From: Candidatus Poribacteria bacterium | GTDB lineage: Bacteria; Poribacteria; WGA-4E; WGA-3G | NCBI GenBank assembly: GCA_965209095.1 | Contig: OZ242381.1 | Coordinates: 4,126,630 to 4,190,629 of the forward strand | Reading direction: 5' to 3' | Length of the DNA stretch: 64,000 nt | Program-made: the position numbers and the translations under genes | Shown: piece after piece, positions 6,025 through 63,949 of the stretch | How positions within the stretch are numbered: the first letter of the stretch is position 1 | How the letters are laid out: every line of letters starts with the position of its first letter | Notes under the pieces: generated by a model | The model's input: the letters and a program-made list of their open reading frames with translations, nothing else | Databases searched by the model: none | Told to the model about the DNA's origin: nothing

Positions 6025-6092
6025 TCTCCTGGGTATATAAGTTGACATCTGATAGATTATCTGTTAAAATGAACAACATTGAAATATTCTTG

Positions 6093-49557: not shown

Positions 49558-50874
49558 CAGGGTTATTTAGTTTTCGGTATTTTAGTCGTTTTTTATCACA
49601 AACGTTAATAATTTTAGATACGCAGAAATAGCGTGAAAAATCACGCTATTTCTGCTATACTTCACCTTAAAAATCTTAACCCTTTGAGGTGAAAAATGAC
49701 AGAGAATAACTCTCGCCACTTGTTAGATAGATTAGCAGAAATCGAAGACCCGCGCAACGAAAAAGGAAAACGACATCCGTTGAATTCAATCCTTGGCCTT
49801 AACATTATTGGTTTTATGACTGGACATAAAGGATATACATCCACCGCAAAGTGGGCACGATCTCAACCAGATCTCGTCCAAGCACTCGGTTTTACACACG
49901 AGAAATCACCTTGTTCCGCAACGATACATAATGTTCTAAAAATATTAGATGCGGATACTGTTGAAAAGACATTTACAAACTGGGTAGAAGATGTTTGTCC
50001 AAGTCGGTCTGATTTAGCAGGATGTCTTGACGCAGTCGCTATAGACGGTAAAACGATGCGTGCCTCCAAAAAAAGTGGTGCGGCAATAAGCCATTTACTC
50101 TCCGTTGTTTCTCATGAGTTAGGGGTTACCCTGACACAACAAGGTATCAGGGACAAAACCAACGAAATACCGATTTCAACAGAGATCCTCAAAAACTTTG
50201 ATGTGAGTGGTAAAGTCATCACAACAGATGCGCTTTTGACACAGAAAACTTTCTGCCAAGAAATCATAGAGGGTGATGGAGACTATGTGCTCCCTGTCAA
50301 AAACAACCACCCCGACCTTTGCGATGATATCCAAAAACTCTTTCAAGATGTTCCTGACACACCTTCACAAGACGCTACACATCCTCTATTGGGAGACCCT
50401 ATTGACACTCACGAGACTTATGAAAAATCACATGGTAGAATTGAGACAAGATGCCTAAAAGCAAGCACAAGTCTCAACGCATATCTGGACTGGCCAGGGA
50501 TAGAACAGGTGATCCAATATCGTTATATTCACGAAAACCCAAATACAGGAGAAGAAACAACCAAAGTCACCTATGGTATTACAAGTCTGACACCCGAAGC
50601 AGCTACTGCCGAACGCTTACTTGAACTACGCCGTGGGCATTGGTCTATAGAGAACAAATCGCATTGGATCCGAGATACTCAACTTGGAGAAGACGCATCG
50701 TCTGTCCGATGCGGTGCTATTCCGCAGGTTATGGCTGCTTTGCGAAATGCAGCATTAGCAGTATTGAGATTTGATGGCGTTACAAGTATAGCTGATAAAA
50801 TAAAATATTATGCTTCAAAACCTTTACTCGCAGTTAACTTGATAACTGAATGTTTTTAAAACTAAATAACCCTG
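49558..50874 (+). mobile_element. Intact ISAs1-family insertion sequence (1317 bp) with 15-bp terminal inverted repeats and a 9-bp target-site duplication.
   Basis: Left inverted repeat CAGGGTTATTTAGTT (49558..49572). Right inverted repeat AACTAAATAACCCTG (50860..50874). Direct repeat TACCCGACC at 49549..49557 and 50875..50883. Confidence 0.75.
49696..50859 (+). CDS. ISAs1-family (H-repeat-associated, DDE_Tnp_1-like) transposase.
   Basis: 387 aa. VAIDGKTMRAS, TTDALLTQK and RRGHWSIENKSHWIRD are characteristic ISAs1 transposase blocks. Confidence 0.8.
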   Translation: MTENNSRHLLDRLAEIEDPRNEKGKRHPLNSILGLNIIGFMTGHKGYTSTAKWARSQPDLVQALGFTHEKSPCSATIHNVLKILDADTVEKTFTNWVEDVCPSRSDLAGCLDAVAIDGKTMRASKKSGAAISHLLSVVSHELGVTLTQQGIRDKTNEIPISTEILKNFDVSGKVITTDALLTQKTFCQEIIEGDGDYVLPVKNNHPDLCDDIQKLFQDVPDTPSQDATHPLLGDPIDTHETYEKSHGRIETRCLKASTSLNAYLDWPGIEQVIQYRYIHENPNTGEETTKVTYGITSLTPEAATAERLLELRRGHWSIENKSHWIRDTQLGEDASSVRCGAIPQVMAALRNAALAVLRFDGVTSIADKIKYYASKPLLAVNLITECF

Positions 50875-51060: not shown

Positions 51061-51278
51061 CACAATGAATTGCTCAACTACAAACACTTGTCTTGGTAAT
51101 GAAAGACTATATTAATGGTAAAACTATTGATTTATGACAGTTCTTGATAATTGAATGTACAATAAAAAAGGCACACATGGTTAGCGTGCCTAAAGGAGTA
51201 TTGTTGACTAAATTACAGTTTACGTTTAAGGTAGGTGTGCTATATGTTCAGACTAAATAATTCAACCTCTTGAGTCTG

Positions 51279-51662
51279 TTATATTTGTTTCTGGATTGCA
51301 TAAGCACTTACATCAACTCTTTCGGATAATTTCTTTTGTGTGGATGTGAGTTCTGTAGATTCACCATCTATTGCTTCAATATCAGTACTATTTTTCCCAG
51401 TTGTATCTTTGTTCTCTGTATCATTAAATTCTATGTAATGGATTTCCTCATGGTCTGTATCAGATGTTTCATCAATGTGTTGGGTTTCTACTTTTTGATT
51501 GTTGTCATATATTTCTACAGTAGACATCATAAATTGAAACCATACAAAACATCCGATTGTAAAAATCATTATGAAAATTGATCCACCGACAATCCAGTTT
51601 TCTATTGAAAAATCTTTTAACATGGTGTTCTCCCTATTGTCCGTTGTTCGTCCAGTCATCAC
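51279..51662 (-). CDS. Small single-pass membrane protein with an acidic C-terminal tail, downstream of the first ECF-fusion gene.
   Basis: One TM helix (IVGGSIFIMIFTIGCFVWF) followed by a D/E/T-rich tail. The start is uncertain (MLKDFS... possible). Confidence 0.4.
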   Translation of the reverse strand: MMTGRTTDNRENTMLKDFSIENWIVGGSIFIMIFTIGCFVWFQFMMSTVEIYDNNQKVETQHIDETSDTDHEEIHYIEFNDTENKDTTGKNSTDIEAIDGESTELTSTQKKLSERVDVSAYAIQKQI

Positions 51663-51974: not shown

Positions 51975-53822
51975 TTAATCAGAGAAACGAAGTTCTTCAT
52001 CAGGAATTGGTATGTTAAATTCTGCCTTATCTACTTGCATTTGGAAAAATTGTCCTGACATTTCGGTTTCAGGATCATAACCTACACCGTAAGTTGCAGA
52101 TTTTGGAAACCAAATTTCTGGAGTAAACTGTTCAATGTTAAATGTATGTTTAATTCGACTAATTACTTCTTCAGGTTCTAAGAGGATACGTTTTCCATCA
52201 GGACCCACGAGTACTGCTCGAGACATACCCTTTGAGGTTTTTAAACTTTGAGTTGGTCTATATCCTTTCGCCGGATCTATCCATATCTGTTGAATAGCAG
52301 AATTGTCTTTGCCATGAATTCGTTGTAAGGTAATTAAGTATTGAGGAACTTTATTGACCATAACCTGCTCTACTTTTATGGGATTATAATAATTCCGGGT
52401 TAGGAAAGTAAAACTAAATATGCTCGGATGCCATCCCCAACTGAGTGGACTATAATCATATATGAATATTGATTTATCCACTGGTTTTGGATGCTGTACC
52501 CATAACTCATCCTCATTTTTCTCTCTTATCAACATCTCTTTTTTAGCAATCTGAAACTGGTAGTGTTTTTCTTCCCAATCTGGAAGTAGAAAACCAACGA
52601 AATCCATCTTCCGACGAAATTTGACATCATACAAATGACGTGTTCCTTGAAAAGTATAGGTTATCTGGTAAATTCCTACTTCTTCATATTTGGCTTTTTC
52701 ATCTACCGGTTTTTGCAGTAAGAAATTCAGAAAACGGATGAATAGGTTCTTCTGTGTTTTAGGTGGCACATAATCATTCTGCTTAATTTGAAATTCGATT
52801 TTCCCACTTTGCAATTTACCATTATATGCAATTACTTCTTTCGTGATTTTTTCCAAAAGATCAGCCGATTCTTTGGATAGAACTACATCTGACGGTGGTG
52901 CTTGAACTGTGGCATCTGTCCTATCATCCTCTTGATTTCCCACACCATTTGTATTACCATCTTCATCTGATTGACCTAACTGATTACGTTTATCTGGTTC
53001 CTCTTTTAAATCCAGGAATAGATCAGTATCAACTAATTCAACCGTAGTCTCTGATGTAGAATCCAAACTATACGGTTTCTGATAACTTCTTAGATTCTGT
53101 GCACCAATCACTATCAGCAAGACAAAAATAATGGCTGATGCAGCTGATATTGCTAACGGTATAAAAGGTCTATTGACCGATGGTGTTATTGGAATTATAC
53201 GGTTTACCTCTTTCAGGATGTTTTCTGTCATTTGTGTCGGTAGTTGGAAACTATTCAAGTTTTCTTGAATCATTGCTTCTTCCTTCTTTAATCGGTTACG
53301 AGCACGGTGGAGTCGACTCCGTACCGTATTGGGAGACATTCCCAAAAACTTACCAATCTCTTCACAGGACATTTCTGCGATATAATACAGATTTACGACA
53401 GTGCGGTCACTCTCTTGCAGTGTACTGAGCAACTTCTGAACGGCTGTACGTCGTTTTTCTTTTGCCGCATCTTCGCGTTGTTGAGTCATATATTCTGAAT
53501 AGCATACCTCCTCTAATTCAACGGGATCTGTCGCTTCTAACGATTGCGGTTGTGGTGATTTCTTTCGGTGCCACGCAATACATTTACGGTTGGTAATCAC
53601 ATAGAGCCATCCCGCGAAACGATTATGGTCTGTGAGCGTAGAGAGCTTTTGGAATGCTGTAAAGAACGCATCCTGTGTAATCTCTTGAGCAATGTGGAAA
53701 TCACCAATTTTCTGCCAGGCTAACGCGTGTACCTGTTTTTGGTATTTTTCCACAAGTGCAGCAAACGCTTTCTGGTCACCCTCTAAAGTTTGTTGAATCA
53801 GGTCAGAGTCATCGTAAGTCAT
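51975..53822 (-). CDS. ECF sigma factor fused through one TM helix to an extracytoplasmic domain of about 370 aa (paralog 1; no BNR repeats).
   Basis: Sigma70 region 2 (DLIQQTLEGDQKAFAALVEKYQKQVHALAW...WLYVITNRK) and region 4 (EMSCEEIGKFLGMSPNTVRSRLHRARNRL). A TM helix follows at about residue 240 (FIPLAISAASAIIFVLLIVIGA). Start set at MTYDDSD; the ORF track gives 53888. Confidence 0.75.
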   Translation of the reverse strand: MTYDDSDLIQQTLEGDQKAFAALVEKYQKQVHALAWQKIGDFHIAQEITQDAFFTAFQKLSTLTDHNRFAGWLYVITNRKCIAWHRKKSPQPQSLEATDPVELEEVCYSEYMTQQREDAAKEKRRTAVQKLLSTLQESDRTVVNLYYIAEMSCEEIGKFLGMSPNTVRSRLHRARNRLKKEEAMIQENLNSFQLPTQMTENILKEVNRIIPITPSVNRPFIPLAISAASAIIFVLLIVIGAQNLRSYQKPYSLDSTSETTVELVDTDLFLDLKEEPDKRNQLGQSDEDGNTNGVGNQEDDRTDATVQAPPSDVVLSKESADLLEKITKEVIAYNGKLQSGKIEFQIKQNDYVPPKTQKNLFIRFLNFLLQKPVDEKAKYEEVGIYQITYTFQGTRHLYDVKFRRKMDFVGFLLPDWEEKHYQFQIAKKEMLIREKNEDELWVQHPKPVDKSIFIYDYSPLSWGWHPSIFSFTFLTRNYYNPIKVEQVMVNKVPQYLITLQRIHGKDNSAIQQIWIDPAKGYRPTQSLKTSKGMSRAVLVGPDGKRILLEPEEVISRIKHTFNIEQFTPEIWFPKSATYGVGYDPETEMSGQFFQMQVDKAEFNIPIPDEELRFSD

Positions 53823-54017
53823 CTGATACCTCAATAACGAATTAGTCTTTTTAATATATAGACGCGATTTTGAGGAAAAGAATTGCATTTTTTTGAAAAA
53901 AGCGTATTCTCAAAGAAATGTATGGGTTTTAGTTCAGAGAAGTCAGAAGTTGTATGTAGGGTAGTATGAAATGGTATTACATACCAGGTAGGTGAATATT
54001 GAACTATTTATTATTCA

Positions 54018-54160
54018 AACCCAAGTTGCTACCTATAAGTTTTAAGACCTGGAAAGACCTTTTTTAATGAAAAAACTGATAATTAGCCAATATTTTGTAG
54101 CGTAAACTTCCAGTTTGCGCCTCTTATGACACAATCTGGCAGATTGTGCTACAAGGTAGC
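54018..54160. repeat. Family-2 MITE-like element (143 bp) between ECF-fusion genes 1 and 2.
   Basis: Ends AACCCAAGTTGCTACCTATAAG and CTACAAGGTAGCAACTTGAGTT, with the internal cacaatctggcagattgtg palindrome. Confidence 0.6.
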
Positions 54161-54168
54161 AACTTGAG

Positions 54169-57060
54169 TTATTCAAGTCGAATCTTATACACGCCGCTAC
54201 CGTAAGTGCCAGCGTAAATAAAACCGTCAACTACTGCTAAGGATGAAACCTGTTTGTGAAGAGAACCAATCGACTTCCAATGCTGTTTTTCCTCTATCCA
54301 TTGGAAAACACTTGTAGGTGTGCTGACATACACCTCAGTCCCATCTGTTCCTATTGATGTAGCAGATGTTTCATCCAGACCCTCGTTGATGGTTATCCAT
54401 GTATTGCCTCCATCCTTGGAACGAAATACCCCGTTGTTCCAAAAGCTTGCATATAAGGTTGTATCGACCCACTTGAGATCAGACAAACCGTCATCAATCA
54501 TATCTGTTATGTGAATAGGTTCCCAACGGTGTTCTTTAAAACGGTAGATTTCATTGCCCGCGGTGCCATGAATTCCTGTAACCGCAATCACACTCTCTTT
54601 GTTGGCAGACAACATCGAGATTTCGCGATGTTGTTCCAAGCCAAGTTTGGTAAGACCCATTTTCTGATCCCACCGGAAGACCCCACTTGACCATGTGCCC
54701 ATATAAAAGGTATTGCCAACTACATCCATACTTCGAATTCCATACATGTCCCTATCTGTGAAAAGTTCGACCAAAGTGTTATTTTCTCTATTCAACGTAT
54801 AGACACTATCTCCCTCACGACCAGAATAAGGAGGAATATATTTATCATTACCAAAGTAAGCACCAATGTAGAGCTCTCCATTTGAAACACAAATGGATTC
54901 AACACCACATTTGCCCTGATTTAAAGGATCGTTTACAGGCAACCATGTATCTCCACCGTCGGCTGAATAGACAAGCTTGCTACCAACAACGGTGTATAGT
55001 TTATCACCAATTATCTCTAATTTGCTTACATCTGTATTTATTATGCCAGTGCTGCATTCTACCCAAGAATCCCCTGCATCTGTTGTGCGAAAGACTCCAT
55101 TGTCCGATGTGCCTACAAAAACAGTATTATCATTGATTGGTAACAATGTTAAAACATCATCATACATGACTCCATCATTGATTGATATCCAGGAATCACC
55201 CATATCATTCGAAAGATAGATCAAACCGTCAGAAGTGCCGGCATATAGCCTCTCACCTTGTACGGTAATTGTCTGAACGTCATCACCTTCTTCTCCTACT
55301 TTTTCTGGGGTGATGAGCGTCCATGTGTCGCCTCCGTCATTTGAACGGAAGAGCCCAGATTCTTTGCCTATACTTCCACTCAAAAAAAGTAAATGTTTCA
55401 TAGAAGCTAACGACTCAACATATAAATCATAAGAAGAATCTTGCTTAGGTGAAGGATTTGATTTTGGTTTATCTTTCGAATTATTTTCCGATTCAACCCC
55501 ATCTGAATGCACAATGACAGTTGGGTTGACTGGTGTCCACGAGTCGTCATTTTCCATTCTACGAAAGAGCCCCTTTTTTGTTGCAACGACTAGTAGTGCT
55601 GTACCAACACTTGCGAGTTTAAAAACCGGCATCGGGTTTAGGGCAAAGGGTCTAACAATAGGCGAGTTGCTATCTAAGAGACGCCCATGTAACATAATTC
55701 CGAGTCCCTCATTGATTTGTACCCATGAATTACCATCTGACTGCCAAACACCTGAGAGATGTGTACTAACATAGATGTGGTCACCATGAATCACAATATC
55801 AGTGATTATTGCAGGTGCTTTGAAAGCAGATACAGGTTGCCAGGTGTTGCCAATATCAGTAGAAATGTATAATGCCTCCCCCGTGCTAACATAGATCATA
55901 TCCCCCATTTCTGCGATTGCAGTAACTACCATGGGGGACCTACTTGGGTGGGTGTGTAATCCAGTATTAACAGGTGTCCAACTATTTCCATGATCTGTGG
56001 AGCGGAAAACTCCTGCCCCATCTGTCCCCGCAAGAAGCACGCCATTAGAGGTGTTATAAAGCGTAGTTATCTTGCCACCGTAAGGGCCATTCGTCTGTCT
56101 CCATCTGCCTTTAAACTTGCTGCTTTCTGCACCATCTGATTGTGCTGCTGCAGGCAGTGATGTATCCGGTTCCTGATCTGTTCCATCATTTTTACTGAGT
56201 ACATCAGAACGACTAACCTGATTGATTATTGCAGGTTTGGCAGGGGATTCAAAGACTACTCGTGTGTCAACGATTTCAATCGTTGGTTTTGATGTTGCCT
56301 CTATACTATACGGTTTCTGAAACCGAATTATATTTTGCGCACCAAAACCTATCAGTAAAACAACTAAAATGGTTGATGCAGCAGAAACTGCTAAAGGTAC
56401 TAAAGGTTTACTTCCTGATGGCGTTACTGGGTTGAGCCGTGATATTTCCTTCCTGATGTTTTCTGTCAATTGTGTTGGCAGTTGGAAACTGCTAAGATTT
56501 TCTTGTATCATTGCTTCCTCCTTCTTTAACCGCTCTCTGGCTCGGTGAAGTCGACTCCGTACCGTATTGGGAGACATTCCCAAAAACTTGCCAATCTCTT
56601 CACAGGACATTTCAGCGAGGTAATAGAGACTCATCACTGTACGGTCACTTTCCTGTAGCTTGCTGAGCAATTTATGGACAATTGTTCGGTGTTTTTCTTT
56701 TGCTGCTTCTTCACGTTGTTCGGTCATATATTCTGAATAATATACCTCTTCCAACTCAACTGGATTTGTATCATCAATTGATTGCGTTTCAAGTTTTTTC
56801 TTCCGATGCCACGCAATGCACTTTCGATTCGTAACGACATAAAGCCATCCTGCAAATTGTTTGTAGTGTGTGAGGGTCGAGAATTTTTGATAGGCAGTGA
56901 TGAAAACATCTTGCGTAATTTCTTGTGCGATGTGAAAATCACCAATTTTCTGCCACGCAAGGGTGTGTACCTGCTCTTGGTATTTTTCTACAAGTTGGGC
57001 AAAAGCGTGTTGATCACCTTCTAATGTGCGTTGAATTAGTTCAGCATCATCGTTTTTCAT
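54169..57060 (-). CDS. ECF sigma factor, TM helix and periplasmic BNR/Asp-box beta-propeller fusion (paralog 2, 963 aa).
   Basis: The N-terminal sigma regions 2 and 4 are as in paralog 1. The TM helix is LVPLAVSAASTILVVLLIGFGA. There are at least seven S-x-D-x-G-x-[ST]-W Asp-box motifs (STDHGNSW, STDIGNTW, SNDGGDTW, SNDMGDSW, TTDAGDSW, SADGGDTW, SKDGGNTW). Confidence 0.8.
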   Translation of the reverse strand: MKNDDAELIQRTLEGDQHAFAQLVEKYQEQVHTLAWQKIGDFHIAQEITQDVFITAYQKFSTLTHYKQFAGWLYVVTNRKCIAWHRKKKLETQSIDDTNPVELEEVYYSEYMTEQREEAAKEKHRTIVHKLLSKLQESDRTVMSLYYLAEMSCEEIGKFLGMSPNTVRSRLHRARERLKKEEAMIQENLSSFQLPTQLTENIRKEISRLNPVTPSGSKPLVPLAVSAASTILVVLLIGFGAQNIIRFQKPYSIEATSKPTIEIVDTRVVFESPAKPAIINQVSRSDVLSKNDGTDQEPDTSLPAAAQSDGAESSKFKGRWRQTNGPYGGKITTLYNTSNGVLLAGTDGAGVFRSTDHGNSWTPVNTGLHTHPSRSPMVVTAIAEMGDMIYVSTGEALYISTDIGNTWQPVSAFKAPAIITDIVIHGDHIYVSTHLSGVWQSDGNSWVQINEGLGIMLHGRLLDSNSPIVRPFALNPMPVFKLASVGTALLVVATKKGLFRRMENDDSWTPVNPTVIVHSDGVESENNSKDKPKSNPSPKQDSSYDLYVESLASMKHLLFLSGSIGKESGLFRSNDGGDTWTLITPEKVGEEGDDVQTITVQGERLYAGTSDGLIYLSNDMGDSWISINDGVMYDDVLTLLPINDNTVFVGTSDNGVFRTTDAGDSWVECSTGIINTDVSKLEIIGDKLYTVVGSKLVYSADGGDTWLPVNDPLNQGKCGVESICVSNGELYIGAYFGNDKYIPPYSGREGDSVYTLNRENNTLVELFTDRDMYGIRSMDVVGNTFYMGTWSSGVFRWDQKMGLTKLGLEQHREISMLSANKESVIAVTGIHGTAGNEIYRFKEHRWEPIHITDMIDDGLSDLKWVDTTLYASFWNNGVFRSKDGGNTWITINEGLDETSATSIGTDGTEVYVSTPTSVFQWIEEKQHWKSIGSLHKQVSSLAVVDGFIYAGTYGSGVYKIRLE

Positions 57061-57121
57061 TGGACACCTTCATACAGAAAAATAGAAATGCAATTACAAA
57101 TAATAGACTCTCTATAATTAA

Positions 57122-57157
57122 AAACGCGATTTTATGGTATAGAATTGCACATTTTTG
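57122..57157 (-). promoter_or_regulatory. Candidate ECF-type promoter for paralog 2. On the coding strand it reads TGTGCAATTCT-N13-AAAATCGCGTTT. A near-identical motif lies upstream of paralog 1 at about 53861..53895.
   Basis: Coding-strand sequences: paralog 2 attttttcaaaaatgtgcaattctataccataaaatcgcgttt; paralog 1 ttttttcaaaaaaatgcaattcttttcctcaaaatcgcgtct. ECF promoters typically pair an AA-containing -35 with a CGTC-containing -10. Confidence 0.4.
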
Positions 57158-57270
57158 AAAAAATTGCAATTTTGGGGGAAAAACGATAATTTAAAAAAAA
57201 GAGAAGAGGATTTAGGCAGAATTATAAAAAAGCACACCTACTAATAGGCGCACATTATGATTTACTGGTA

Positions 57271-57290
57271 GGCGCGCCTGGAAGCGCGCC
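57271..57290. other. GC-only stem-loop GGCGCGC-ctggaa-GCGCGCC in the intergenic region between ECF-fusion genes 3 and 2. A second copy at 60599..60618 is called as a terminator.
   Basis: A 7-bp all-GC stem in an AT-rich background, with no clear U-tract on either strand. Confidence 0.4.
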
Positions 57291-57330
57291 TAAAAAGAGT
57301 AATGTAAATTGCAAATCAACTATAAGCAGC

Positions 57331-60159
57331 TTACTTTTCAATTTGAATACGATGGACACCTGCTTGAGTGCCAGCGTAGAGGAAACCGTCCAATACCGCT
57401 AAGGATTGAACTGGTAAACTTAGCGAACCCAACTGTTCCCACTTCTCATCTTTATGGAGCCACTTGAAAACCCCATGCTGCGTTGTGCCGATGTAGAAGT
57501 CAGTGCCATCAATCTCTACAGTTTCGATTGATACCTGTTCTATACCACTGTTTAATTGAGTCCAAGTATTACCATCGTCTAATGACCGTATTAGTCCTTC
57601 TTGACCAGACAGTAAGTAAAGTTTATTGTCAATCTTTCTTGATGCTGCGAACCGCCTATGCGCCTTTTTACCCTTTATTTGTTCCCACTGCGCTTGGTGG
57701 CCTTGCAGACAGAAAAATTCGTTTCGCTGTGTCCTTGCATAGATATTAGCATCGCTTACCGTAATGTCAGTGATAAATTGACCATTTAATCCAAGATTTA
57801 GCCACGAGTCCCAACCTTCATTCCAAAGGAAAACACCTTGTCCTTGTGTGCCAACATAAAACGTCGTATCTACAATATGCATACTTTCTATCCCGTACGC
57901 TTCTCTATCAGTTGTAATTTCAATCAATGCGTTGTTCTGTTCATCTAATTGGAAAACACCACCAACGACTCCCCCATGACTGTTAGGAGCAAATCTTAAG
58001 GCACCAATGTACAATCTTCCATTCAAAGCAGAAATCTCTGCAAAGTGAAAATCATACGGTTTAGGCGAGTTCTCAATTTGTTCCCACTTATCTCCACCAT
58101 TTGTACTATATAGAAGTCTACCTTCTACAGTAAAAGCATAAATTCTGTCTCTCAAAACTTCCAAATCGACAACTGAAGTGCCCATTATTCCTTTATCTGC
58201 TTCCACCCACGAATTACCTCCATCTGTCGTGCGAAAAATGCTTCCTTCAAGTGTAGTGGCGAAAACTGTATCTGCACTAATTGCCACTAATTCCTTACTC
58301 ATTCCATCTGTTAGATCTTTGCCAACGGGTGTCCAAGAATCACCTTTGTCATTCGAACGGAAAACACTTCCACCAAAAGTACTGGCGTACAGTGTAGATT
58401 CAAAAACTGCCAACGCTTCAACGGTTCGTTTCATTTCTTTAGCGGTGATACGTGTCCAAGAATCACCTTCATCATCAGATCGAAATAAACCTTTGTCTTT
58501 ACCCATATATACACCAATATATAGTAAATCATCCATAGAAGCAATTGAGTCCACTCGAATTCCTGCAGGAAAGAGCGGTCTTGGAGGCGGATCAAATCCC
58601 GATTCAATTTGCGCTTTAATGAATGGTTCCTCGTCAATGGGTTGCGCACTAAATCCTGAATTGATTGGTTGCCACCTATCTTCAGTTGCTTTTTTGCGAA
58701 AAGCACCATCCTCTGTCCCAACAACAAGGGTGGTACCAATATTTGCAAATTCACGGATCCGTACATCTATCAGACCATCGTTCATTGGTGTCCAAGACTT
58801 CTCATCATCTGAATACCATACACCTCCCACATCCCCACGTCCTGGATATGTACTGATGTATATACGGTCACCAATAATTACGATACCAGAAATTGTGCTA
58901 TCCTGTGGATCGGTTGGAACATAATGCCATGTTTTCCCAGTATCGGTTGACTTATATAAATCCCCGATAACACTTGCGTAGAATGTATCCTCTTTTTGTG
59001 TAAATGCCAAAACATTTATTTCAAGATCTTCGTATATGTCAGGTACTTCCACATTCGCTGACACCCAAGAATCACCGAGATCAGTTGAACGAAAAATTCC
59101 GTGATTCATTGTCCCAGCTAAAAGTATTCCCTCAGAGGTCGCAAAAAGTGTACTGATATCTCCTCCATAAGGACCGTTGGTCTGACTCCATTGTGCTTTT
59201 GACGTTGAATTTTCTGCATCATCCGATTGTGCTGCTGCAAGCAGTGATGTACCCGGTTTCTGCTCTGTTCCATCATTGTTAATGAGAACATCAGAACGAC
59301 TAACCTGATTGTTTATTGCAGGTTTGACAGGGGATTGCAAGACTATTGGAGTATCTACGATTTCAATCGTTGGTTTTGATGTTGCCTCTATACTATACGG
59401 TTTCTGAAACCGAATTATATTTTGCGCACCAAAACCTATCAGTAAAACAACTAAAATGGTTGATGCAGCAGAAACTGCTAAAGGTACTAAAGGTTTACTT
59501 CCTGATGGCGTTACTGGGTTGAGCCGTGATATTTCCTTCATGATGTTTTCTGTCAATTGTGTTGGCAGTTGGCAACTGCTAAGGTTTTCTTGAATCATTG
59601 CTTCCTCCTTCTTTAACCGCTCTCTGGCTCGGTGAAGTCGACTTTTAACCGTGTTCGGAGATACCCCCAAAAACCTACCAATCTCTTCACACGTTAAGCC
59701 TGCAAGGTAATGCATCGTTACGACTGTCCGTTCACTCTCTCCAAGTTTACTGATCAGTTTTCGAACAATTGCTCTCCGATTTTGATTCGCTGCTTCTTCA
59801 CGTTGACGAGACGTATATTCGGAATAATACACCTCTTCTAATTCCATTGGGTCTGTCTCCTCCAGAGATTGTAATTGCGGTTTTTTCTTCCGGTGCCACA
59901 TGTTACACTTGTTACTGGTAATGACGTAGAGCCATCCCGCAAATCGGTTGTGATGTGTGAGGGTTGCGAGTTTTTGATACGCAGTGACGAAGGCATCTTG
60001 TGTTATCTCTTGTGCGATGTGGAAATCACCAATTTTCTGCCACGCCAAAGCGTGTATCTGTTCTTGGTATTTTTCTACAAGTGCAGCAAAGGCGTGTTGA
60101 TCACCTTCAAGTGTGCGTTCAATCAATTCAGCATCATTATGTTTCATGGAACACCTCAC
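57331..60159 (-). CDS. ECF sigma factor, TM helix and periplasmic BNR/Asp-box beta-propeller fusion (paralog 3, 942 aa).
   Basis: Sigma regions 2/4, TM helix and Asp-box motifs (STDLGDSW, STDTGKTW, SDDEGDSW, SNDKGDSW, TTDGGNSW, STNGGDKW, SLDDGNTW). The juxtamembrane segment is about 97% identical at DNA level to paralog 2. Confidence 0.8.
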   Translation of the reverse strand: MRCSMKHNDAELIERTLEGDQHAFAALVEKYQEQIHALAWQKIGDFHIAQEITQDAFVTAYQKLATLTHHNRFAGWLYVITSNKCNMWHRKKKPQLQSLEETDPMELEEVYYSEYTSRQREEAANQNRRAIVRKLISKLGESERTVVTMHYLAGLTCEEIGRFLGVSPNTVKSRLHRARERLKKEEAMIQENLSSCQLPTQLTENIMKEISRLNPVTPSGSKPLVPLAVSAASTILVVLLIGFGAQNIIRFQKPYSIEATSKPTIEIVDTPIVLQSPVKPAINNQVSRSDVLINNDGTEQKPGTSLLAAAQSDDAENSTSKAQWSQTNGPYGGDISTLFATSEGILLAGTMNHGIFRSTDLGDSWVSANVEVPDIYEDLEINVLAFTQKEDTFYASVIGDLYKSTDTGKTWHYVPTDPQDSTISGIVIIGDRIYISTYPGRGDVGGVWYSDDEKSWTPMNDGLIDVRIREFANIGTTLVVGTEDGAFRKKATEDRWQPINSGFSAQPIDEEPFIKAQIESGFDPPPRPLFPAGIRVDSIASMDDLLYIGVYMGKDKGLFRSDDEGDSWTRITAKEMKRTVEALAVFESTLYASTFGGSVFRSNDKGDSWTPVGKDLTDGMSKELVAISADTVFATTLEGSIFRTTDGGNSWVEADKGIMGTSVVDLEVLRDRIYAFTVEGRLLYSTNGGDKWEQIENSPKPYDFHFAEISALNGRLYIGALRFAPNSHGGVVGGVFQLDEQNNALIEITTDREAYGIESMHIVDTTFYVGTQGQGVFLWNEGWDSWLNLGLNGQFITDITVSDANIYARTQRNEFFCLQGHQAQWEQIKGKKAHRRFAASRKIDNKLYLLSGQEGLIRSLDDGNTWTQLNSGIEQVSIETVEIDGTDFYIGTTQHGVFKWLHKDEKWEQLGSLSLPVQSLAVLDGFLYAGTQAGVHRIQIEK

Positions 60160-60357
60160 AAATAGACTAATCTTTTAATATAAAGATGCTATTTGGTTTA
60201 TGAAGGTTGCATTTATCAGAAAAAGTACGGATTGAAAGAGAAAGACTAATTTTGTGCAGCTTCTCTCCGTGAAAATTATGATAAAATTTCTTTAATGGAA
60301 AGTTTTGCTTTAAAAGGGTAGCATATAGTTGGACAATTGCCAACTATAGTAAATCAG

Positions 60358-60545
60358 ATGGATATGTAAAGTTTTTGGCAAACATCTCACTGGTGATTGT
60401 AGTGCCAAATCAACGTCAAATGCGCGTATGGCATTTGTCGGGGTCTCTGTGCCCCGCAATTATTGGTAGATTAAAGGTAGCGGGGCACGGAGCCCCCGCA
60501 CTACAATGGATGGTCCGTAGTTTGTGCCAAAAGCTTTACACACCC
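60358..60545. repeat. Complete family-1 MITE-like element (188 bp) upstream of ECF-fusion paralog 3.
   Basis: Terminal repeats TGTAAAGTTTTTGGCAAACA and TGTGCCAAAAGCTTTACACACCC. Internal hairpin gggtctctgtgccccgc/gcggggcacggagcccc. ccaaatcaacgtcaaatgcgcgt motif present. Confidence 0.7.
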
Positions 60546-60588
60546 AATCAGATTTCATGCTTTTAAAGTGGTTGGAAATGATTCGTGC

Positions 60589-60618
60589 AAAGAAGAAAGG
60601 CGCGCTTGGAAGCGCGCC
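60589..60618 (-). terminator. Probable rho-independent terminator for the lipoprotein gene: GC stem-loop GGCGCGC-ttccaa-GCGCGCC followed by TTTCTTCTTT on the minus strand.
   Basis: A 7-bp GC stem followed by a T-rich tract, about 110 nt downstream of the stop of 60727..61455. Confidence 0.55.
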
Positions 60619-60726
60619 TATAATACCAAATTAACTTGATTCTAATCCAAGTGCCATTTAATAGATAATGCTTATACTTTGAATAGGAATTTGAGAGAAC
60701 CAGACTCATAATCCTGGTTCAGACAA

Positions 60727-61455
60727 TTAATGATCTTCTACTTCCTGCGATGGTAATACCTGCGATGGTATCGTAACTGTCTCACCTGTTGGGGTTCTAA
60801 TACTCGTGGTTGAACGTCTTTTTAGGATGCCAAACAACCTTTTTTCATAATAGGATAAATTCAATAGCGGGTGTTCCATTTCTGACAGTTCCCTATAGAA
60901 ATTTCTATCAATATATGTCAAGACCCCGTCCCAACGTACTGCAATTTTGGCATCTTCTGGTCTTTCTTTTAAAATTAATTCAAGCACACCGCTTGATCGT
61001 TGATATGTTGAAGTTCTTGCACGTGTATGTGTTGAATATCCATCAACATATACTATTGATTTAGACAATTCCCACATCTTGCCATTGGTAAGTTGATAAC
61101 TGGGTTCACCAAGTTTCTCAATACTCTTTTGGACAAGATTTAGTGCATTTGTAGTCGGTTTTTGCGTCATATAACCAGCTGCACGTAATTTATTATTTCT
61201 AAAAGTATACACAAGATAAACAGGAACTTGGTCAATTATAGATTTGTAAACAAGTAGATCCGGTGTTCGCATAAACACTGTTTTACCTTGTTCAATTAAC
61301 ATTACACGTTCCTGCGAGTACCCCCACCGTACCCCACGAAAATCATAATAGCCTTGCATATCTTCAGATACAATATTGTGAAAGGATGAACACCCTACGA
61401 AAAGTGTTGTAATAATAAGTATTCCAAAAAAGGAATTAAATTTTGTGATATTCAC
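60727..61455 (-). CDS. Hypothetical lipoprotein (242 aa).
   Basis: The N-terminus is a signal peptide with a lipobox-like LFVGCSS. No recognisable catalytic motif. The 3' end overlaps a fragment of the 24849-type MITE (aatcctggttcagacaa). Confidence 0.5.
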   Translation of the reverse strand: MNITKFNSFFGILIITTLFVGCSSFHNIVSEDMQGYYDFRGVRWGYSQERVMLIEQGKTVFMRTPDLLVYKSIIDQVPVYLVYTFRNNKLRAAGYMTQKPTTNALNLVQKSIEKLGEPSYQLTNGKMWELSKSIVYVDGYSTHTRARTSTYQRSSGVLELILKERPEDAKIAVRWDGVLTYIDRNFYRELSEMEHPLLNLSYYEKRLFGILKRRSTTSIRTPTGETVTIPSQVLPSQEVEDH

Positions 61456-61756: not shown

Positions 61757-63949
61757 TTACTGCAAAATCAACATTTTGCGCAGGAACGACATATTGTCCG
61801 CCTGCAGTTGATAGAAATATATACCGCTTGCCACCTTTTCACCGAACTCGTTTGTGCCATCCCAATGTGCCGCACGTCCACGCGTTTGATATATACCTGC
61901 CGGTTGGTGCCCCAAATCAAGTTGGCGGACCACAGCACCACGTGCATCATAGATCGTAATCTGCACGTCACTGGCATCTGCTAAACGATACGGTATCCAC
62001 GTCTCCGGGTTGAACGGGTTCGGATAGTTTTGGAACAGTTGGGTACGCTTTATCTGACCGAGTGTGACAAGTTTCTTGCCGCGTGACTCAACGGAGAACG
62101 GCTCAGCCCCGGATCTGTAAACCCATAAGAGAACGGTGCCGTCCCAACTTCCACTTGCGAGGGTTCTTTCATCCGGACTGAACGCTACGCTTGCGACCCG
62201 CGCTGTATGTCCTTTGAGTATTCTCTTTTCTTCGCCGTTAGCAACATCCCACAGACAGATGGTATTGTCATAACTTCCACTTGCGAGTGTGTTTCCATCA
62301 GGACTGAAAGCAATGCTAAAGACCGCCTCTGAATGTCCTTTGAGTATTCCCTTTTCTTTGCCTGTATCAACATCCCACAGACGAATAGTACCGTCCCCAC
62401 TTCCACTTGCGAGCATCTTTCCATCAGGACTGAATGCTACACTATAGGCAGCCGCTTTAAGTATTCTCTTTTCTTTGCCTGTATCAACATCCCACAGACG
62501 AATAGTACCGTCCCCACTTCCACTTGCGAGTGTGTTCTCATCCGGACTGAACGCTACGCTATAGACCCAATATGTATGTTCTTTGAGTATTCTCTTTTCT
62601 TCTCCGGTATCAACATCCCACAGACGAATGGTGCCGTCCTGACTTCCACTTGCGAGGGTTCTTTCATCCGGACTGAACGCTACGCTTTTGACCGCCTCTG
62701 TATGTCCTCTGAGTATTCTCTTTTCTTTACCTATAGCAACATCCCACAGACGAATGGTACTGTCATAACTTCCACTTGCGAGCATCTTCCCATCCGGACT
62801 GAACGCTACGCTTGCGACCGGCCATGGCCGTATATGTTCTTTGAGTATTCTCTTTTCTTCGCCTGTATCAACATCCCACAGACGAATAGTGCCGTCCCCA
62901 CCTCCACTATGACTTCCACTTGCGAGCATCTTCCCATCCGGACTGAACGCTACGCTTTCAACAGGTGCTGTATGTCCTTTGAGTATTCTCTTTTCTTCGC
63001 CTGTATCAACATCCCACAGACTGACTCCACTTGCGATTGTTTTTCCATCCGGACTGAACGCTACATGGTCCCCCACTGTATTTCCATTGAGTATTCTCTT
63101 TTTTTCACCAGTATCAACATCCCACAGATGGATGGCGCCCCAACCTGCACTTGCGAGTGTTTTTTCATCCGGACTGAACGCTACGCTTTCAACAGACCAT
63201 GTATGTCTAAGTATTCCCTTTTCTTCGCCTGTAGCAATATCCCACAGACTGATGGTGTCGTCCCTGCTTCCACTTGCGAGTGTGTTCCCATCCGGACTGA
63301 ACGCTACGCTTGTGACATATCCTCTATGTCCTCTAAATATTTCCTTTTCTTCTCCAGTATCAACATCCCACAGACGGATAGTGATGTCATAACTTCCACT
63401 TGCGAGTGTTTTTCCATCCGGACTGAACGCTACGCTTGTGACAAGTTCTGTATGTCCATTGAGTATTCTCTTTTCTTCACCTGTAACCACATCCCAGAGG
63501 CGGATAGTGCTGTCTAAACTTCCACTTGCGAGGGTTTTTCCATCCGGACTGAACGCTACACTATAAACATTTGCTGTATGTCCTTTAAGTATTCTCTTTT
63601 CTTTTCCAGTGTCAACATCCCACAGGTGGACGGTGTTGTCTAAACTTCCACTTGCGAGGGTTTTTCCATCCGGACTGAACGCTACACTATAAACATTTGC
63701 TGTATGTCCAATATATAGGTCCAGTTCTTCACCTGTTAGTGCGTCATATATCCAAACACCGATGCTACTCGCCACTGCCAGTTTAGAGCCGTCTGGGGAA
63801 TATGCAATTTCACCGTTACCTCCTTTTCCAAACCGCACTTTCGCGCCTTCGGGTAACTCCCAACGTGTGTAGTCTTGAGCGAAGGCGTTTAATGTAAAAA
63901 TAAATATCGTTAAAAGAACAGTTGGAATGAAGAATGGTTTGTTTTTCAT
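61757..63949 (-). CDS. Secreted WD40-repeat beta-propeller protein with a T9SS-type C-terminal sorting domain (730 aa). It is highly repetitive internally.
   Basis: Signal peptide present. Fifteen or more WD units, several identical over 40 aa (GHTANVYSVAFSPDGKTLASGSLD.T..LWDV.TG.EKRILK). The C-terminus reads NYPNPFNPETWIPYRL....V.I.IYDARG..V..L.........WDG.N..GEKVASGIYFYQL. Confidence 0.8.
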   Translation of the reverse strand: MKNKPFFIPTVLLTIFIFTLNAFAQDYTRWELPEGAKVRFGKGGNGEIAYSPDGSKLAVASSIGVWIYDALTGEELDLYIGHTANVYSVAFSPDGKTLASGSLDNTVHLWDVDTGKEKRILKGHTANVYSVAFSPDGKTLASGSLDSTIRLWDVVTGEEKRILNGHTELVTSVAFSPDGKTLASGSYDITIRLWDVDTGEEKEIFRGHRGYVTSVAFSPDGNTLASGSRDDTISLWDIATGEEKGILRHTWSVESVAFSPDEKTLASAGWGAIHLWDVDTGEKKRILNGNTVGDHVAFSPDGKTIASGVSLWDVDTGEEKRILKGHTAPVESVAFSPDGKMLASGSHSGGGDGTIRLWDVDTGEEKRILKEHIRPWPVASVAFSPDGKMLASGSYDSTIRLWDVAIGKEKRILRGHTEAVKSVAFSPDERTLASGSQDGTIRLWDVDTGEEKRILKEHTYWVYSVAFSPDENTLASGSGDGTIRLWDVDTGKEKRILKAAAYSVAFSPDGKMLASGSGDGTIRLWDVDTGKEKGILKGHSEAVFSIAFSPDGNTLASGSYDNTICLWDVANGEEKRILKGHTARVASVAFSPDERTLASGSWDGTVLLWVYRSGAEPFSVESRGKKLVTLGQIKRTQLFQNYPNPFNPETWIPYRLADASDVQITIYDARGAVVRQLDLGHQPAGIYQTRGRAAHWDGTNEFGEKVASGIYFYQLQADNMSFLRKMLILQ

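Follow-up and report, generated by a model that had tools for sequence, protein, structure and literature searches.

An ECF sigma factor fused to its own membrane sensor is the simplest possible trans-membrane transcription switch, and very few such proteins have been studied. Three tandem genes of Candidatus Poribacteria, a sponge symbiont, raise the question of how a switch of this kind can work when it is reduced further: the fused ECF sigma factors studied so far contain an anti-sigma domain, whereas the Poribacteria proteins are apparently without one. The genes, here g1, g2 and g3, lie in a 64-kb stretch of a single contig (the window, 64,000 nucleotides), and an original prediction made from the DNA letters had read them as single-polypeptide sigma/anti-sigma/sensor units released by proteolysis. 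Our analysis shows that g1, g2 and g3 are part of a large, undescribed, Poribacteria-specific family that reuses one sigma–anchor cassette. No published description of the family was found in the searchable literature on sigma factors or on BNR/WD40 proteins of Poribacteria.

Architecture of the three sigma–TM proteins

The three uninterrupted minus-strand open reading frames were found where they had been placed originally (Table 1). Sigma70_r2, Sigma70_r4/r4_2 and Sigma70_ECF all score above the Pfam gathering thresholds in g1, g2 and g3, and the NCBIfam sigma70-ECF model TIGR02937 gives 94–96 bits against a cut-off of 42.9, in agreement with the complete regions 2 and 4 first read from the translations. 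The same Pfam and NCBIfam scan returned no match to sigma region 3 or region 1 in any of the three; g1, g2 and g3 are ECF (group 4) sigma-70 factors, with sigma-2 and sigma-4 and without sigma-1.1 or sigma-3. Hydropathy analysis identifies exactly one strongly hydrophobic segment per protein (19–23 aa, KD 2.4–2.8), as expected for the single membrane crossing that had been proposed. Each product is a single polypeptide with an ECF sigma factor at its N terminus, followed by one TM helix and a large domain outside the cytoplasm, and the order of parts is the same throughout: sigma-2/sigma-4, a 33-aa cytoplasmic linker, the TM helix, a juxtamembrane segment of ~45 aa, a low-complexity spacer and the ectodomain.

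Two start codons were corrected. The ATG at 53888 of g1 falls within the promoter motif, and the actual start is at 53822 (MTYDDSDLIQ), with GAGGT upstream, yielding 615 aa; g3 starts at the ATG at 60147, yielding 938 aa. The exact 615-aa and 938-aa products are present in the public protein collection, from which the longer versions are absent.

Table 1. Features of the g1–g3 locus, in window coordinates.
Feature	Position	Strand	Details
Terminator-like hairpin after small acidic ORF	51169-51191		
Small single-TM acidic protein ORF downstream of g1	51279..51662	-	likely start 51623
g1, sigma–TM fusion	51975..53822	-	615 aa, corrected start
g1 probable LolA-like ectodomain	51978-52895	-	aa ~310-615
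g1 TM	53100-53168	-	aa 219-241
g1 sigma	53268-53822	-	aa 1-185
g1 predicted promoter, class A	53862..53887	-	TGCAATTCTTTTCCTCAAAATCGCGT; ECF-type -35 TGCAAT and -10 CGTC
g2, sigma–TM–double BNR propeller	54169..57060	-	963 aa; identical to database protein P0001
g2 ectodomain	54172..56103	-	aa 320-963; ~14 four-stranded blades, two tandem 7-bladed Asp-box propellers
g2 extracytoplasmic juxtamembrane segment	56197..56337	-	aa 242-288; ..RFQKPYSxEATSxPTIEIVD..NQVxRSDV
g2 single TM helix	56338..56406	-	aa 219-241; invariant P219, P222, G238; hydropathy, invariant columns
g2 conserved cytoplasmic linker	56407..56505	-	aa 186-218; ..NLSSFQLPTQLTENIxKEISRLNPxTPSGSKP
g2 ECF sigma core, regions 2 and 4	56506..57060	-	aa 1-185; Pfam, NCBIfam
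g2 predicted promoter, class A	57124..57149	-	TGCAATTCTATACCATAAAATCGCGT
Terminator-like hairpin between g3 and g2 promoter	57232..57253	-	
g3, sigma–TM–double BNR propeller	57331..60147	-	938 aa, corrected start
g3 propellers	57334-59190	-	
g3 TM	59425-59493	-	
g3 sigma	59593-60147	-	
g3 predicted promoter, class B	60186..60211	-	TGCAACCTTCATAAACCAAATAGCAT; variant TGCAAC-N14-TAGCAT

Ectodomains of g1, g2 and g3

The ectodomains of g2 and g3 had been described as BNR propellers with seven to eight Asp-boxes. A relaxed pattern finds seven in each, and the strict pattern S-x-D-x-G-x-x-W finds six in g2 and five in g3. Both proteins match Sortilin-Vps10 and PSII_BNR above the Pfam threshold, as well as DUF6242, and reach 107–115 bits with the NCBIfam glycosylhydrolase model F510_1955, below its cut-off of 175. 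In the AF2 model of the g2 ectodomain (pLDDT mostly 80–92), ~56 strands form ~14 blades, and Foldseek matches it to GH74 xyloglucanases and to the periplasmic sensor domains of BT4663 and BT4673 (E 1e-20 to 1e-18), the GH74 structures being the closer (TM 0.47–0.52 on target, 13–15% identity). The sigma domains of g2 are likewise modeled with confidence. The g2/g3 ectodomain is a tandem seven-bladed Asp-box propeller with a GH74-like fold; a glycan is therefore the best guess for the ligand, as judged from the modeled fold.

The first gene was said to carry a different domain, and indeed Pfam finds no match past the TM helix of g1. This ectodomain is probably LolA-like, the LolA-like fold being one with an N-terminal helix and an open antiparallel β-sheet half-barrel. 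Its free homologues (311–344 aa) carry N-terminal signal peptides, and the WD40 ectodomains of other family members start like a signal-peptide-bearing WD40 protein encoded at 61757-63949. Because their homologues are free or secreted proteins with signal peptides, the C-terminal parts are assigned to the outside of the cytoplasm; Asp-box propellers, C-type lectin and redoxin are typical extracytoplasmic domains.

A Poribacteria-specific family with interchangeable ectodomains

The architecture recurs in more than 100 full-length homologues from independent assemblies, and the 189 loci detected in species-representative genomes all belong to Candidatus Poribacteria, some of them on complete chromosomes; the word-indexed homology search is not exhaustive, having missed the 615-aa g1 product that was later found by exact look-up. 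This recurrence, complete chromosomes included, answers the suggested check of related genomes for the architecture and, with the uninterrupted reading frames, shows that it does not stem from separate genes joined by a frameshift. Family genes often stand in tandem arrays with shared promoters across related loci, consistent with the expanding signaling family that had been suggested.

The idea that g1 is a one-off chimera or a decaying pseudogene was rejected, given the 615-aa product on record and a 92.9%-identical orthologue in another assembly. Against that orthologue, synonymous changes outnumber non-synonymous ones in the sigma half (37:11) and in the ectodomain half (29:19), from which we conclude that g1 is functional. 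A second, divergent group with the g1 type of fusion comprises nine members, one of them named Poribacteria. Truncated family copies (172, 289 and 335 aa) are found elsewhere; sigma-less TM-BNR derivatives also occur, and some gene calls begin past the sigma part.

At 50% identity the sigma–anchor cassette is present in ~142 clusters. The 95 of sufficient length for classification divide into 17 ectodomain groups unrelated in sequence, among them BNR, WD40 (a subclass of ~35 clusters), Kelch, C-type lectin, GHL15, redoxin, transglutaminase and trypsin+TPR. This census was compiled by BLAST clustering and targeted scans, an alignment-based Pfam census having been swamped by WD40 sub-families. 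The BNR propeller is one among many interchangeable ectodomains, a point that the original prediction missed. Several ectodomains (redoxin, transglutaminase, trypsin, GHL15) are enzyme-like and not classical sensors, a counterpoint to the sensor view; by domain model, the enzyme-like types are Redoxin/AhpC-TSA, Transglut_core, Trypsin_2+TPR, GHL15 and Peptidase_M16_C.

The linker, TM helix and juxtamembrane segment

Across 87 family members, mean column conservation is 0.83 in the linker, 0.79 in the TM helix and 0.76 in the juxtamembrane segment, as compared with 0.84–0.87 in the sigma domains and 0.62 in the low-complexity spacer of ~50 aa that leads from the juxtamembrane segment to the ectodomain. 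The helix-breaking residues Pro219, Pro222 and Gly238 (g2 numbering) are invariant or nearly so in the family. Cys81 in sigma-2 is at least 90% conserved family-wide, and Cys153 in sigma-4, invariant throughout the BNR subfamily, varies in the diverse set. The juxtamembrane motif F-Q-[KQRE]-P-Y is invariant as F-Q-x-P-Y in an alignment of 17 linker–TM–juxtamembrane sequences (A7), and the segment is kept alike in members with BNR, WD40 and lectin ectodomains. Its conservation regardless of ectodomain suggests that family members share a processing or partner machinery.

The notion of a sigma/anti-sigma/sensor unit holds for the sigma factor and the ectodomain on one polypeptide and is not supported for the anti-sigma part. 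The 33-aa linker gives no match to an anti-sigma family in Pfam at E ≤ 10 or in a PDB profile search, and AlphaFold does not dock it on the sigma domains (linker pLDDT < 50); with all three negative, the idea of an anti-sigma domain in the linker was rejected. The segment LPTQLTENIMKEI may resemble the final pre-membrane helix of RsiW-type anti-sigma factors. The only PDB match of the linker–TM–juxtamembrane profile, the Notch3 TM peptide (8os0, E 0.009), was put down to hydrophobic composition. Self-cleavage of the RsgI type at an Asn-Pro bond was likewise set aside, as the juxtamembrane segment is without Asn-Pro, and we know of no cleavage site that resembles the juxtamembrane motif. The window shows no gene for a site-1 or site-2 protease.

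Promoters and transcription units

Shared promoter motifs had been proposed for the three genes. The class A motif TGCAAT-N14-TCGCGT is found upstream of both g1 and g2, and the window holds three matches at no more than one mismatch (0.43 expected), a number reached in 0 of 100 shuffles. Over the 95 nt upstream of g1, the orthologous locus L066 shows 100% identity. ECF-type promoters are marked by AAC in the -35 element and CGT in the -10 element. Family-wide, the motif TGCAAY-N17-CGTC/CATC/TGTC is conserved 38–70 nt ahead of the start codon, class A preceding 48 family genes and class B 22. An exact scan of 620 kb, made up of the neighborhoods of family genes and one 64-kb window, places 70 of the 71 matches directly upstream of family genes.

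The -10 variant tracks a loop in sigma-2. Proteins with the loop xNRKCIx are preceded by TCGCGTC (36 class A, 0 class B) and those with TSNKCNM-like loops by TAGCATC (19 class B, 0 class A); in a third promoter class, the loop xxxKCKN pairs with TGTGTC. This correspondence without exceptions favors autoregulation, and, as far as sequence can indicate, argues for the predicted ECF-type promoter of each gene serving that purpose. The pairing could derive in part from shared descent of orthologues rather than from independent co-evolution. Exact and relaxed scans of the 620 kb gave nothing convincing in the way of target promoters besides those of family genes, so that co-regulated neighbor genes were dismissed; the relaxed motif produced 13 non-family matches where 5.4 are expected, two of the 13 at locus ends.

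The hairpin between g3 and the g2 promoter indicates that each gene forms its own transcription unit. Homologues of the small acidic TM protein encoded downstream of g1 are found 250–450 nt downstream of sigma–TM genes at eight other loci; its gene is a recurrent accessory gene of the family.

A model for activation and its alternatives

The model that we favor, with somewhat better than even confidence, is that of a one-polypeptide membrane-anchored ECF sigma factor in which a fixed cassette carries a swappable outside domain and which is released by regulated proteolysis and autoregulates. The sigma part would be synthesized in the cytoplasm and kept at the inner membrane, as the order of domains indicates, and would be inactive while tethered. 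Binding of a ligand to the ectodomain, or loss of or damage to that domain, would make the shared juxtamembrane segment accessible to site-1 cleavage, after which an intramembrane site-2 protease would cleave the TM helix, by analogy with IutY and SigW/RsiW. The freed sigma factor could join RNA polymerase and act at its own class-specific ECF-type promoter, in positive autoregulation consistent with the match between conserved motifs and sigma-2 loop type, and would probably also drive a further regulon.

By analogy with IutY regulated proteolysis is plausible, and it is the most likely mode of activation. That a tethered sigma factor cannot join RNA polymerase is assumed: ToxR and CadC are transcription factors that sit in the membrane, and membrane-bound one-component regulators are an established class. 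The sigma factor may instead stay bound and recruit RNA polymerase at the membrane, with the ectodomain modulating it by conformation or oligomerization through the conserved linker; that no anti-sigma domain was detected fits this arrangement, as does a linker as conserved as the sigma core, which is expected if it transmits a signal or sets the geometry. We nevertheless hold it to be improbable. There is no known case of a membrane-tethered sigma factor acting in this way, the invariant prolines and glycine in or beside the TM helix suit an intramembrane-protease substrate, and ~50 aa of low-complexity spacer make a poor conduit for conformational signals. Moreover, IutY, the sole fused sigma factor whose activation has been characterized experimentally, is freed by proteolysis, and proteolytic processing is the proposed model for SCO4117 too (PMC8999054). 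An arrangement without any membrane span, in which the extension is a cytoplasmic regulator as proposed for ECF41, ECF42 and ECF57, would have the propeller control the sigma core from within the cytoplasm as a protein-interaction domain; ECF57 proteins with WD40-like C-terminal repeats are proposed to act by protein interaction and conformational change (PMC8999054). Cys81 and, in the BNR subfamily, Cys153 recall two ECF57 cysteines. The hydrophobic segment, whose KD reaches 2.8 across 19 residues, is too strong and too conserved, the homologues of the C-terminal domains are secreted with signal peptides, and Asp-box propellers, C-type lectin and redoxin are so typically found outside the cytoplasm that this arrangement is very unlikely. 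Least probable of all, to the point of being negligible, is that sigma and TM/propeller genes were joined by a sequencing frameshift or that the genes are decaying; the truncated copies and the gene calls beginning after sigma could be cited for it, but for g1, g2 and g3 it is refuted by intact reading frames, by the more than 100 homologues from independent assemblies and by the excess of synonymous changes between g1 and its orthologue.

Release by proteolysis may also serve another end, in which the ectodomains are working surface or periplasmic binders or enzymes and the sigma–TM cassette is a generic N-terminal anchor. The cassette would be processed once its ectodomain has been shed or damaged or has been turned over, and the released sigma factor would mainly re-induce its own gene, closing a self-reporting loop. 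We regard this as unlikely, if less so than activity in the tethered state. The enzyme-like domains borne by the same cassette speak for it, as do the free secreted counterparts of ectodomains in the same genomes, the restriction of motif-bearing promoters in 620 kb to family genes, the individual -10 variant and sigma-2 loop of each paralogue class and the occurrence of sigma-less TM-BNR derivatives. Weighing against it, the 620 kb cover family-gene neighborhoods and one 64-kb window, so that distant regulon members would escape; anti-sigma factors that act as sensors through enzyme-like or carbohydrate-binding ectodomains are known (RsgI of Clostridium thermocellum); and a positive loop confined to itself requires a shut-off, of which none is evident.

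A related and equally tentative idea is that the cassette is a portable module in which the tether is all there is: membrane attachment alone would silence the sigma factor, for which reason no anti-sigma domain would be needed, and the module would have been grafted onto at least 17 sequence-unrelated groups of exported domains as self-contained loops. Loss or engagement of the outside domain would release a sigma factor aimed mainly at its own class-specific promoter. If true, such a loop would be a new logic for matching the synthesis of a surface protein to its fate outside the cell, and would connect transcription directly with the 'eukaryote-like' WD40, BNR, Kelch and lectin proteins that sponge symbionts possess. 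The data suggest that part of the Poribacteria WD40/BNR/Kelch/lectin repertoire is signal input to gene regulation and does not consist only of secreted effectors; possibly this input concerns host-matrix glycans. Being large, highly modular and apparently free of anti-sigma domains, the family offers a clean system for control by a tether alone and for juxtamembrane read-out, and the three promoter classes with their own sigma-2 loops are candidate orthogonal sigma/promoter pairs.

Comparison with known systems

The proposed novelty stands in part: no characterized example with a BNR propeller was found in the searchable literature, but the general kind is known from IutY, ECF52/ECF53/ECF48 and the WD40-bearing ECF57. 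IutY of Pseudomonas putida (ECF243) is a sigma/anti-sigma hybrid that is activated by Prc and then RseP and whose truncated form is constitutively active (PMC8999054). It shares with the Poribacteria proteins an N-terminal ECF sigma factor, a membrane span and a periplasmic C-terminal part on one polypeptide, but has a FecR-type anti-sigma domain in place of a 33-aa linker without an anti-sigma match. IutY works with a TonB-dependent siderophore receptor, whereas the Poribacteria ectodomains are propellers, lectins, enzymes and others, and no TonB-receptor gene is present among the neighbors of family genes in the window, L001 and L066.

The actinobacterial ECF52, ECF53 and ECF48 likewise have an ECF sigma factor fused to one or two TM helices and to a portion outside the cytoplasm; that of SCO4117 (Streptomyces coelicolor) is a carbohydrate-binding domain, and proteolytic activation has been proposed (PMC8999054, PMC5826349). 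These proteins have a ZAS-like zinc finger (HxxxCxxC) between sigma core and membrane and a proline-rich region, whereas the Poribacteria linker contains no Cys or His and gives no zf-HC2 match; the Poribacteria family belongs to another phylum, and its cassette is highly conserved. Planctomycetal ECF57 factors (5.3 per genome; PMC7826278) and the WD40 ECFs of Gemmataceae resemble the family in their long C-terminal β-propeller repeats and several paralogues per genome. Conserved cysteines lie in sigma-2 and sigma-4 of ECF57, where the Poribacteria proteins have Cys81 family-wide and Cys153 in the BNR subfamily. No report of BNR/GH74-like propellers or other ectodomain types in ECF57 was found in the literature examined, and TIGR02989, the Rhodopirellula/Verrucomicrobium family model, scores 73–75 bits, below its cut-off of 124.55.

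The nearest solved structure to the g2 sigma core is SigW of Bacillus subtilis (5wuq, E 9e-24), and SigW is also the best NCBIfam match, at 106–115 bits far below the equivalog cut-off of 209. SigW–RsiW is the textbook example of a sigma factor set free by site-1 and site-2 proteolysis, and the SigW promoter, of TGAAAC..CGTA type, resembles the family's TGCAAT-N17-CGTC. Unlike in the Poribacteria fusions, the anti-sigma factor of SigW is a protein in its own right and carries a four-helix zinc-binding domain. The SigI/RsgI systems of Clostridium thermocellum are many paralogous autoregulated sigma units in one genome that differ in their extracellular sensing domains, which are carbohydrate-binding or glycosidase-like, and are in this respect akin to the Poribacteria family. 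They differ in being two separate proteins, SigI not being an ECF factor and RsgI having a defined anti-sigma domain; RsgI cleaves itself within its juxtamembrane domain, at an Asn-Pro bond, unlike the Poribacteria proteins with their F-Q-[KQRE]-P-Y motif. The context of SigI in C. thermocellum is given in PMC10575876. Although their output consists of kinase, receiver and AraC domains rather than a sigma factor and their TM-scores against g2 are low (0.23–0.31), the Bacteroides hybrid two-component systems BT4663 (a heparin sensor, 4a2l) and BT4673 (3ott/3va6) join a periplasmic, glycan-sensing tandem propeller through a TM segment to a transcription output within one polypeptide, as g2 does.

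Three tandem genes join an ECF sigma factor to a membrane helix and an ectodomain

The three minus-strand open reading frames of the region (g1, g2 and g3) are all uninterrupted, and their products pass the curated Pfam thresholds for Sigma70_r2, Sigma70_r4/r4_2 and Sigma70_ECF. They score 94–96 bits against the NCBIfam superfamily model TIGR02937 (cut-off 42.9) and reach none of the NCBIfam equivalog models, the best being SigW (106–115 bits against a cut-off of 209). The nearest solved structure to the sigma core is likewise B. subtilis SigW (5wuq, E 9e-24), and the match stops near residue 181. Each protein contains exactly one strongly hydrophobic segment, at residues 219–241 in g2 numbering, beyond which g2 and g3 match Sortilin-Vps10, PSII_BNR and DUF6242; C-terminal to this segment g1 has no Pfam match. 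The observation behind the original prediction therefore stands: all three genes join sigma70 regions to a transmembrane (TM) helix and an outer part, two carry Asp-box propellers, with seven repeats each, and the outer domain of g1 differs from those of g2 and g3.

Start codons were corrected to 53822 for g1 (MTYDDSDLIQ, preceded by GAGGT; an ATG at 53888 falls within the conserved promoter motif) and to 60147 for g3, and the public protein collection holds exactly these 615-aa (g1) and 938-aa (g3) products, not longer versions.

Coordinates of the features (window positions, or residues where stated; conservation is the mean column value in an alignment of 87 family members)
Feature	Position	Strand	Remarks
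g1	51975–53822	–	
g2	54169–57060	–	
g3	57331–60147	–	
Sigma-2	residues 1–89		conservation 0.84
Sigma-4	residues 128–185		conservation 0.87
Cytoplasmic linker	residues 186–218		conservation 0.83
TM helix	residues 219–241		conservation 0.79
Extracytoplasmic juxtamembrane segment	residues 242–266		conservation 0.76
Spacer after juxtamembrane segment	residues 267–320		conservation 0.62
Near-identical stretch, g2	56281–56520		
Near-identical stretch, g3	59368–59607		
Small ORF directly after g1	51279–51662	–	likely start 51623; one TM helix (FSIENWIVGGSIFIMIFTIGCFVWFQ), acidic tail
Putative lipoprotein gene	60727–61455	–	upstream of array; 242 aa (..LFVGCSS..), no Pfam match
IS transposase, intact	49696–50859	+	just downstream of array; DDE_Tnp_1 with DDE_Tnp_1_assoc
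Transposase fragment	49236–49538	+	related to the intact transposase
WD40-repeat protein, exported	61757–63949	–	large; signal peptide
WD40-repeat protein	34699–36954	–	large
WD40-repeat protein	37240–39375	–	large
SelA (selenocysteine synthase)	6003–7550	+	adjoins next gene
FGE-sulfatase family	7537–8373	+	
ORF antisense to g3	58178–58924	+	long; low-complexity/repetitive translation, most likely no gene
ORF antisense to WD40 gene	62333–63517	+	long; low-complexity/repetitive translation, most likely no gene
GC-rich hairpin GGCGCGCTTCCARGCGCGCC	57270–57290	–	after g3
GC-rich hairpin GGCGCGCTTCCARGCGCGCC	60598–60619	–	after lipoprotein gene
Palindromic GC-rich elements	60400–60560		560-nt spacer 5' of g3; GCGGGGCxxxxxxCCCCGC

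A frameshift joining separate genes is excluded as the source of the fusion: more than 100 full-length homologues (930–1060 aa) have the same architecture, all named ones being Candidatus Poribacteria, and the g2 product has an exact database counterpart, a protein from a 5.44-Mb contig. When the first 275 residues of g2 were scanned against a single genome from each GTDB species, a search that reaches close relatives only, 189 relatives were returned. The 63 loci retained, of sponge and coral origin and with several complete chromosomes among them, are Poribacteria MAGs, except for two contigs of one assembly titled 'uncultured bacterium'; within this range of close relatives, the family is so far known only from Poribacteria associated with sponges and corals.

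Over its N-terminal ~300 residues, g1 is positionally orthologous to the 'third gene' in tandem arrays of other genomes (71–76% identity over the first ~300–320 residues), and homology stops in the spacer. That g1 is a one-off chimera is refuted by a 92.9% orthologue in another assembly and by a second, divergent group of nine members with the same fusion type. The orthologue has the same small ORF downstream, and its promoter and 5' UTR are 100% identical to those of g1; synonymous to non-synonymous differences stand at 37:11 in the sigma half and 29:19 in the ectodomain half.

Homologues of that small ORF lie 250–450 nt downstream of sigma–TM genes in eight other Poribacteria loci (L066, L010, L027, L041, L043, L045, L052 and L053), and because of this recurrence it is a putative accessory gene of the family. 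The putative lipoprotein gene is kept beside family genes in loci L066, L049, L014, L028 and partly L024 (72–89% identity). At the position of the transposase, L066 has FGE-sulfatase, HhH-GPD/NUDIX (MutY-like) and aldo-keto reductase genes instead. Besides the FGE-sulfatase-family gene next to SelA in the window, one is also located close to the sigma array in the related loci L001 and L066.

A conserved cassette carries diverse ectodomains

Conservation extends from the sigma regions through the linker (consensus NLSSFQLPTQLTENIMKEISRLNPxTPSGSKP), the TM helix and the juxtamembrane segment (RFQKPYSxEATSxPTIEIVD), and drops in the spacer, where D, E, N, Q and S abound. Pro219 and Pro222 are invariant and Gly238 almost so, the most diverse members included, and F-Q-x-P-Y shows no variation in a 17-sequence linker–TM–juxtamembrane alignment. 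The original prediction described single-polypeptide sigma/anti-sigma/sensor units; an anti-sigma part is not detectable, the linker–TM–juxtamembrane region having no Pfam match at E<=10 and no anti-sigma chain among the PDB sequences when all of these were searched by profile, and residues 185–316 of g2 being undocked in the AlphaFold model (pLDDT <50). The ~240 nt encoding linker, TM helix and juxtamembrane segment are 95–100% identical in DNA between g2 and g3, against 65–85% elsewhere, a pattern suggestive of recent gene conversion between the tandem paralogues.

In the AF2 model of g2 (mean pLDDT 70, from an alignment of 73 sequences), residues 320–963 are confident (mostly pLDDT 80–92), their ~56 strands corresponding to ~14 blades. 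A Foldseek search against the PDB returned two groups of tandem seven-bladed propellers, namely GH74 xyloglucanases (target TM-score 0.47–0.52, 13–15% identity) and, with lower TM-scores, the periplasmic sensor domains of BT4663 (the heparin/heparan sulphate system) and BT4673, two hybrid two-component systems of Bacteroides. Given these matches, a glycan ligand is a reasonable guess, no more.

Exhaustive HMMER searching of 1.84 billion representative proteins with a 163-aa query spanning sigma-4 to the juxtamembrane segment yielded, at E<=1e-30, 142 clusters of 50% identity, ~400 to 1377 aa long, most matching at one position, residues 128–288. For the 95 clusters of >=450 aa with a recognisable sigma motif, the C-terminal parts were clustered and scanned with targeted Pfam models, giving BNR (~39 clusters), WD40 (~35), GHL15 (7), CarboxypepD_reg with C-type lectin (3) and a g1-type group, the singletons Kelch, Redoxin/AhpC-TSA, Transglut_core, Trypsin_2+TPR, Big_5 and Peptidase_M16_C, and several clusters with no Pfam match. 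In sigma–TM–WD40 fusions elsewhere, the WD40 ectodomains share their start with the mature N-terminus of the exported WD40 protein, DYTRWELPEGAKVRFGKG... This common start and the census indicate that the cassette has been joined repeatedly to domains also found on their own as exported proteins. The C-terminal tail of the same WD40 protein resembles the FlgD_ig/Por_Secre_tail called on its L066 counterpart.

Sigma-less derivatives occur in other Poribacteria genomes (proteins P0050 and P0095; 538–716 aa, starting MKIRTYFKEISRLNP..), with TM helix and BNR propeller kept and the sigma part and juxtamembrane segment absent. Three short family copies with intact promoters (L034 (4000), L012 (4000) and L038 (4000); 172, 289 and 335 aa) may be pseudogenes or sensor-less variants; the 172-aa copy is sigma only, cut within sigma-4, and the 335-aa copy ends just past the spacer.

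Promoter classes follow the sigma-2 loop

TGCAAT-N14-TCGCGT precedes g1 and g2 (three matches in the window with one mismatch allowed, against 0.43 expected), and the variant TGCAAC-N14-TAGCAT precedes g3, so that the promoter motifs predicted to be common to the array fall into classes A and B. Compared with the consensus of B. subtilis SigW/SigM/SigX, the motif reads as a typical ECF-type promoter (-35 TGCAAY, -10 CGTC/CATC, 17-nt spacer). Across 620 kb (window and loci), 70 of 71 exact matches lie directly 5' of family genes, and motif and start codon are 38–70 nt apart. Without exception there, the -10 variant follows the sigma-2 loop: class A (TCGCGTC) goes with xNRKCIx (36 A, 0 B), class B (TAGCATC) with TSNKCNM-like loops (19 B, 0 A), and a third class, C (TGTGTC), with xxxKCKN. 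Both the position of the motif and this pairing support class-specific positive autoregulation as a candidate mode of control, although shared descent of orthologues also contributes to the pairing. The relaxed motif gave 13 non-family matches (two at locus ends) against 5.4 expected by shuffling, and neither exact nor relaxed scans of the 620 kb made co-regulated neighbour genes evident.

Terminator-like hairpins lie between g3 and g2 and beyond the small ORF 3' of g1, so each array gene looks like its own transcription unit, g1 possibly co-transcribed with the small ORF. The palindromic GC-rich elements near the array are possibly REP- or MITE-like repeats.

Proposed release of the sigma factor

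Domain order, cassette conservation and conserved promoters matched to sigma type are established features of the family. Prc and RseP free IutY, a fused sigma/anti-sigma protein, and processing has been proposed for SCO4117 (ECF52) (PMC8999054). By analogy, we infer that the sigma factor would stay at the membrane, inactive while tethered, until an event at the ectodomain led to a cut in the shared juxtamembrane segment and next in the TM helix, freeing it. The helix-breaking residues of the TM helix fit this model, as does a juxtamembrane segment that is constant whatever the ectodomain, which also suggests one common processing machinery.

Alternatively, the ectodomains could be the working proteins, on an anchor that replenishes itself as the sigma factor chiefly re-induces its own gene. 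Enzyme-like ectodomains in the family and the absence so far of other sigma targets in the motif scans of 620 kb speak for this reading, which we consider unlikely; a ToxR-like sigma factor, tethered yet active, appears less probable still. As an overall explanation for the family we favour release by proteolysis, with moderate confidence.

Comparison with known systems

The feature is real and well defined, and fused sigma/TM/sensor proteins are already known as a kind. ECF sigma factors whose C-terminal extensions span the membrane are an established type: IutY belongs to group ECF243, ECF52/53/48 combine a zinc finger, TM helices and a carbohydrate-binding domain, ECF263 has 5–7 TM helices, and ECF57 of Planctomycetes carries WD40-like repeats at 5.3 copies per genome (PMC7826278). 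The Poribacteria family would work like these; unlike IutY, it has neither a FecR-like domain nor a TonB-receptor neighbour gene, and unlike ECF52/53/48 it has no ZAS domain. In the literature covered, which is incomplete, we found no publication on the family and none on a sigma factor that carries a BNR/GH74-like ectodomain, the latter in agreement with the original prediction. Relevant both to ECF specialists and to sponge-symbiosis research, the family differs from known systems in a strongly conserved, portable cassette with no detectable anti-sigma domain, a wide range of grafted ectodomains, three promoter classes paired with sigma-2 loop types, and an occurrence confined so far to Poribacteria associated with sponges and corals.
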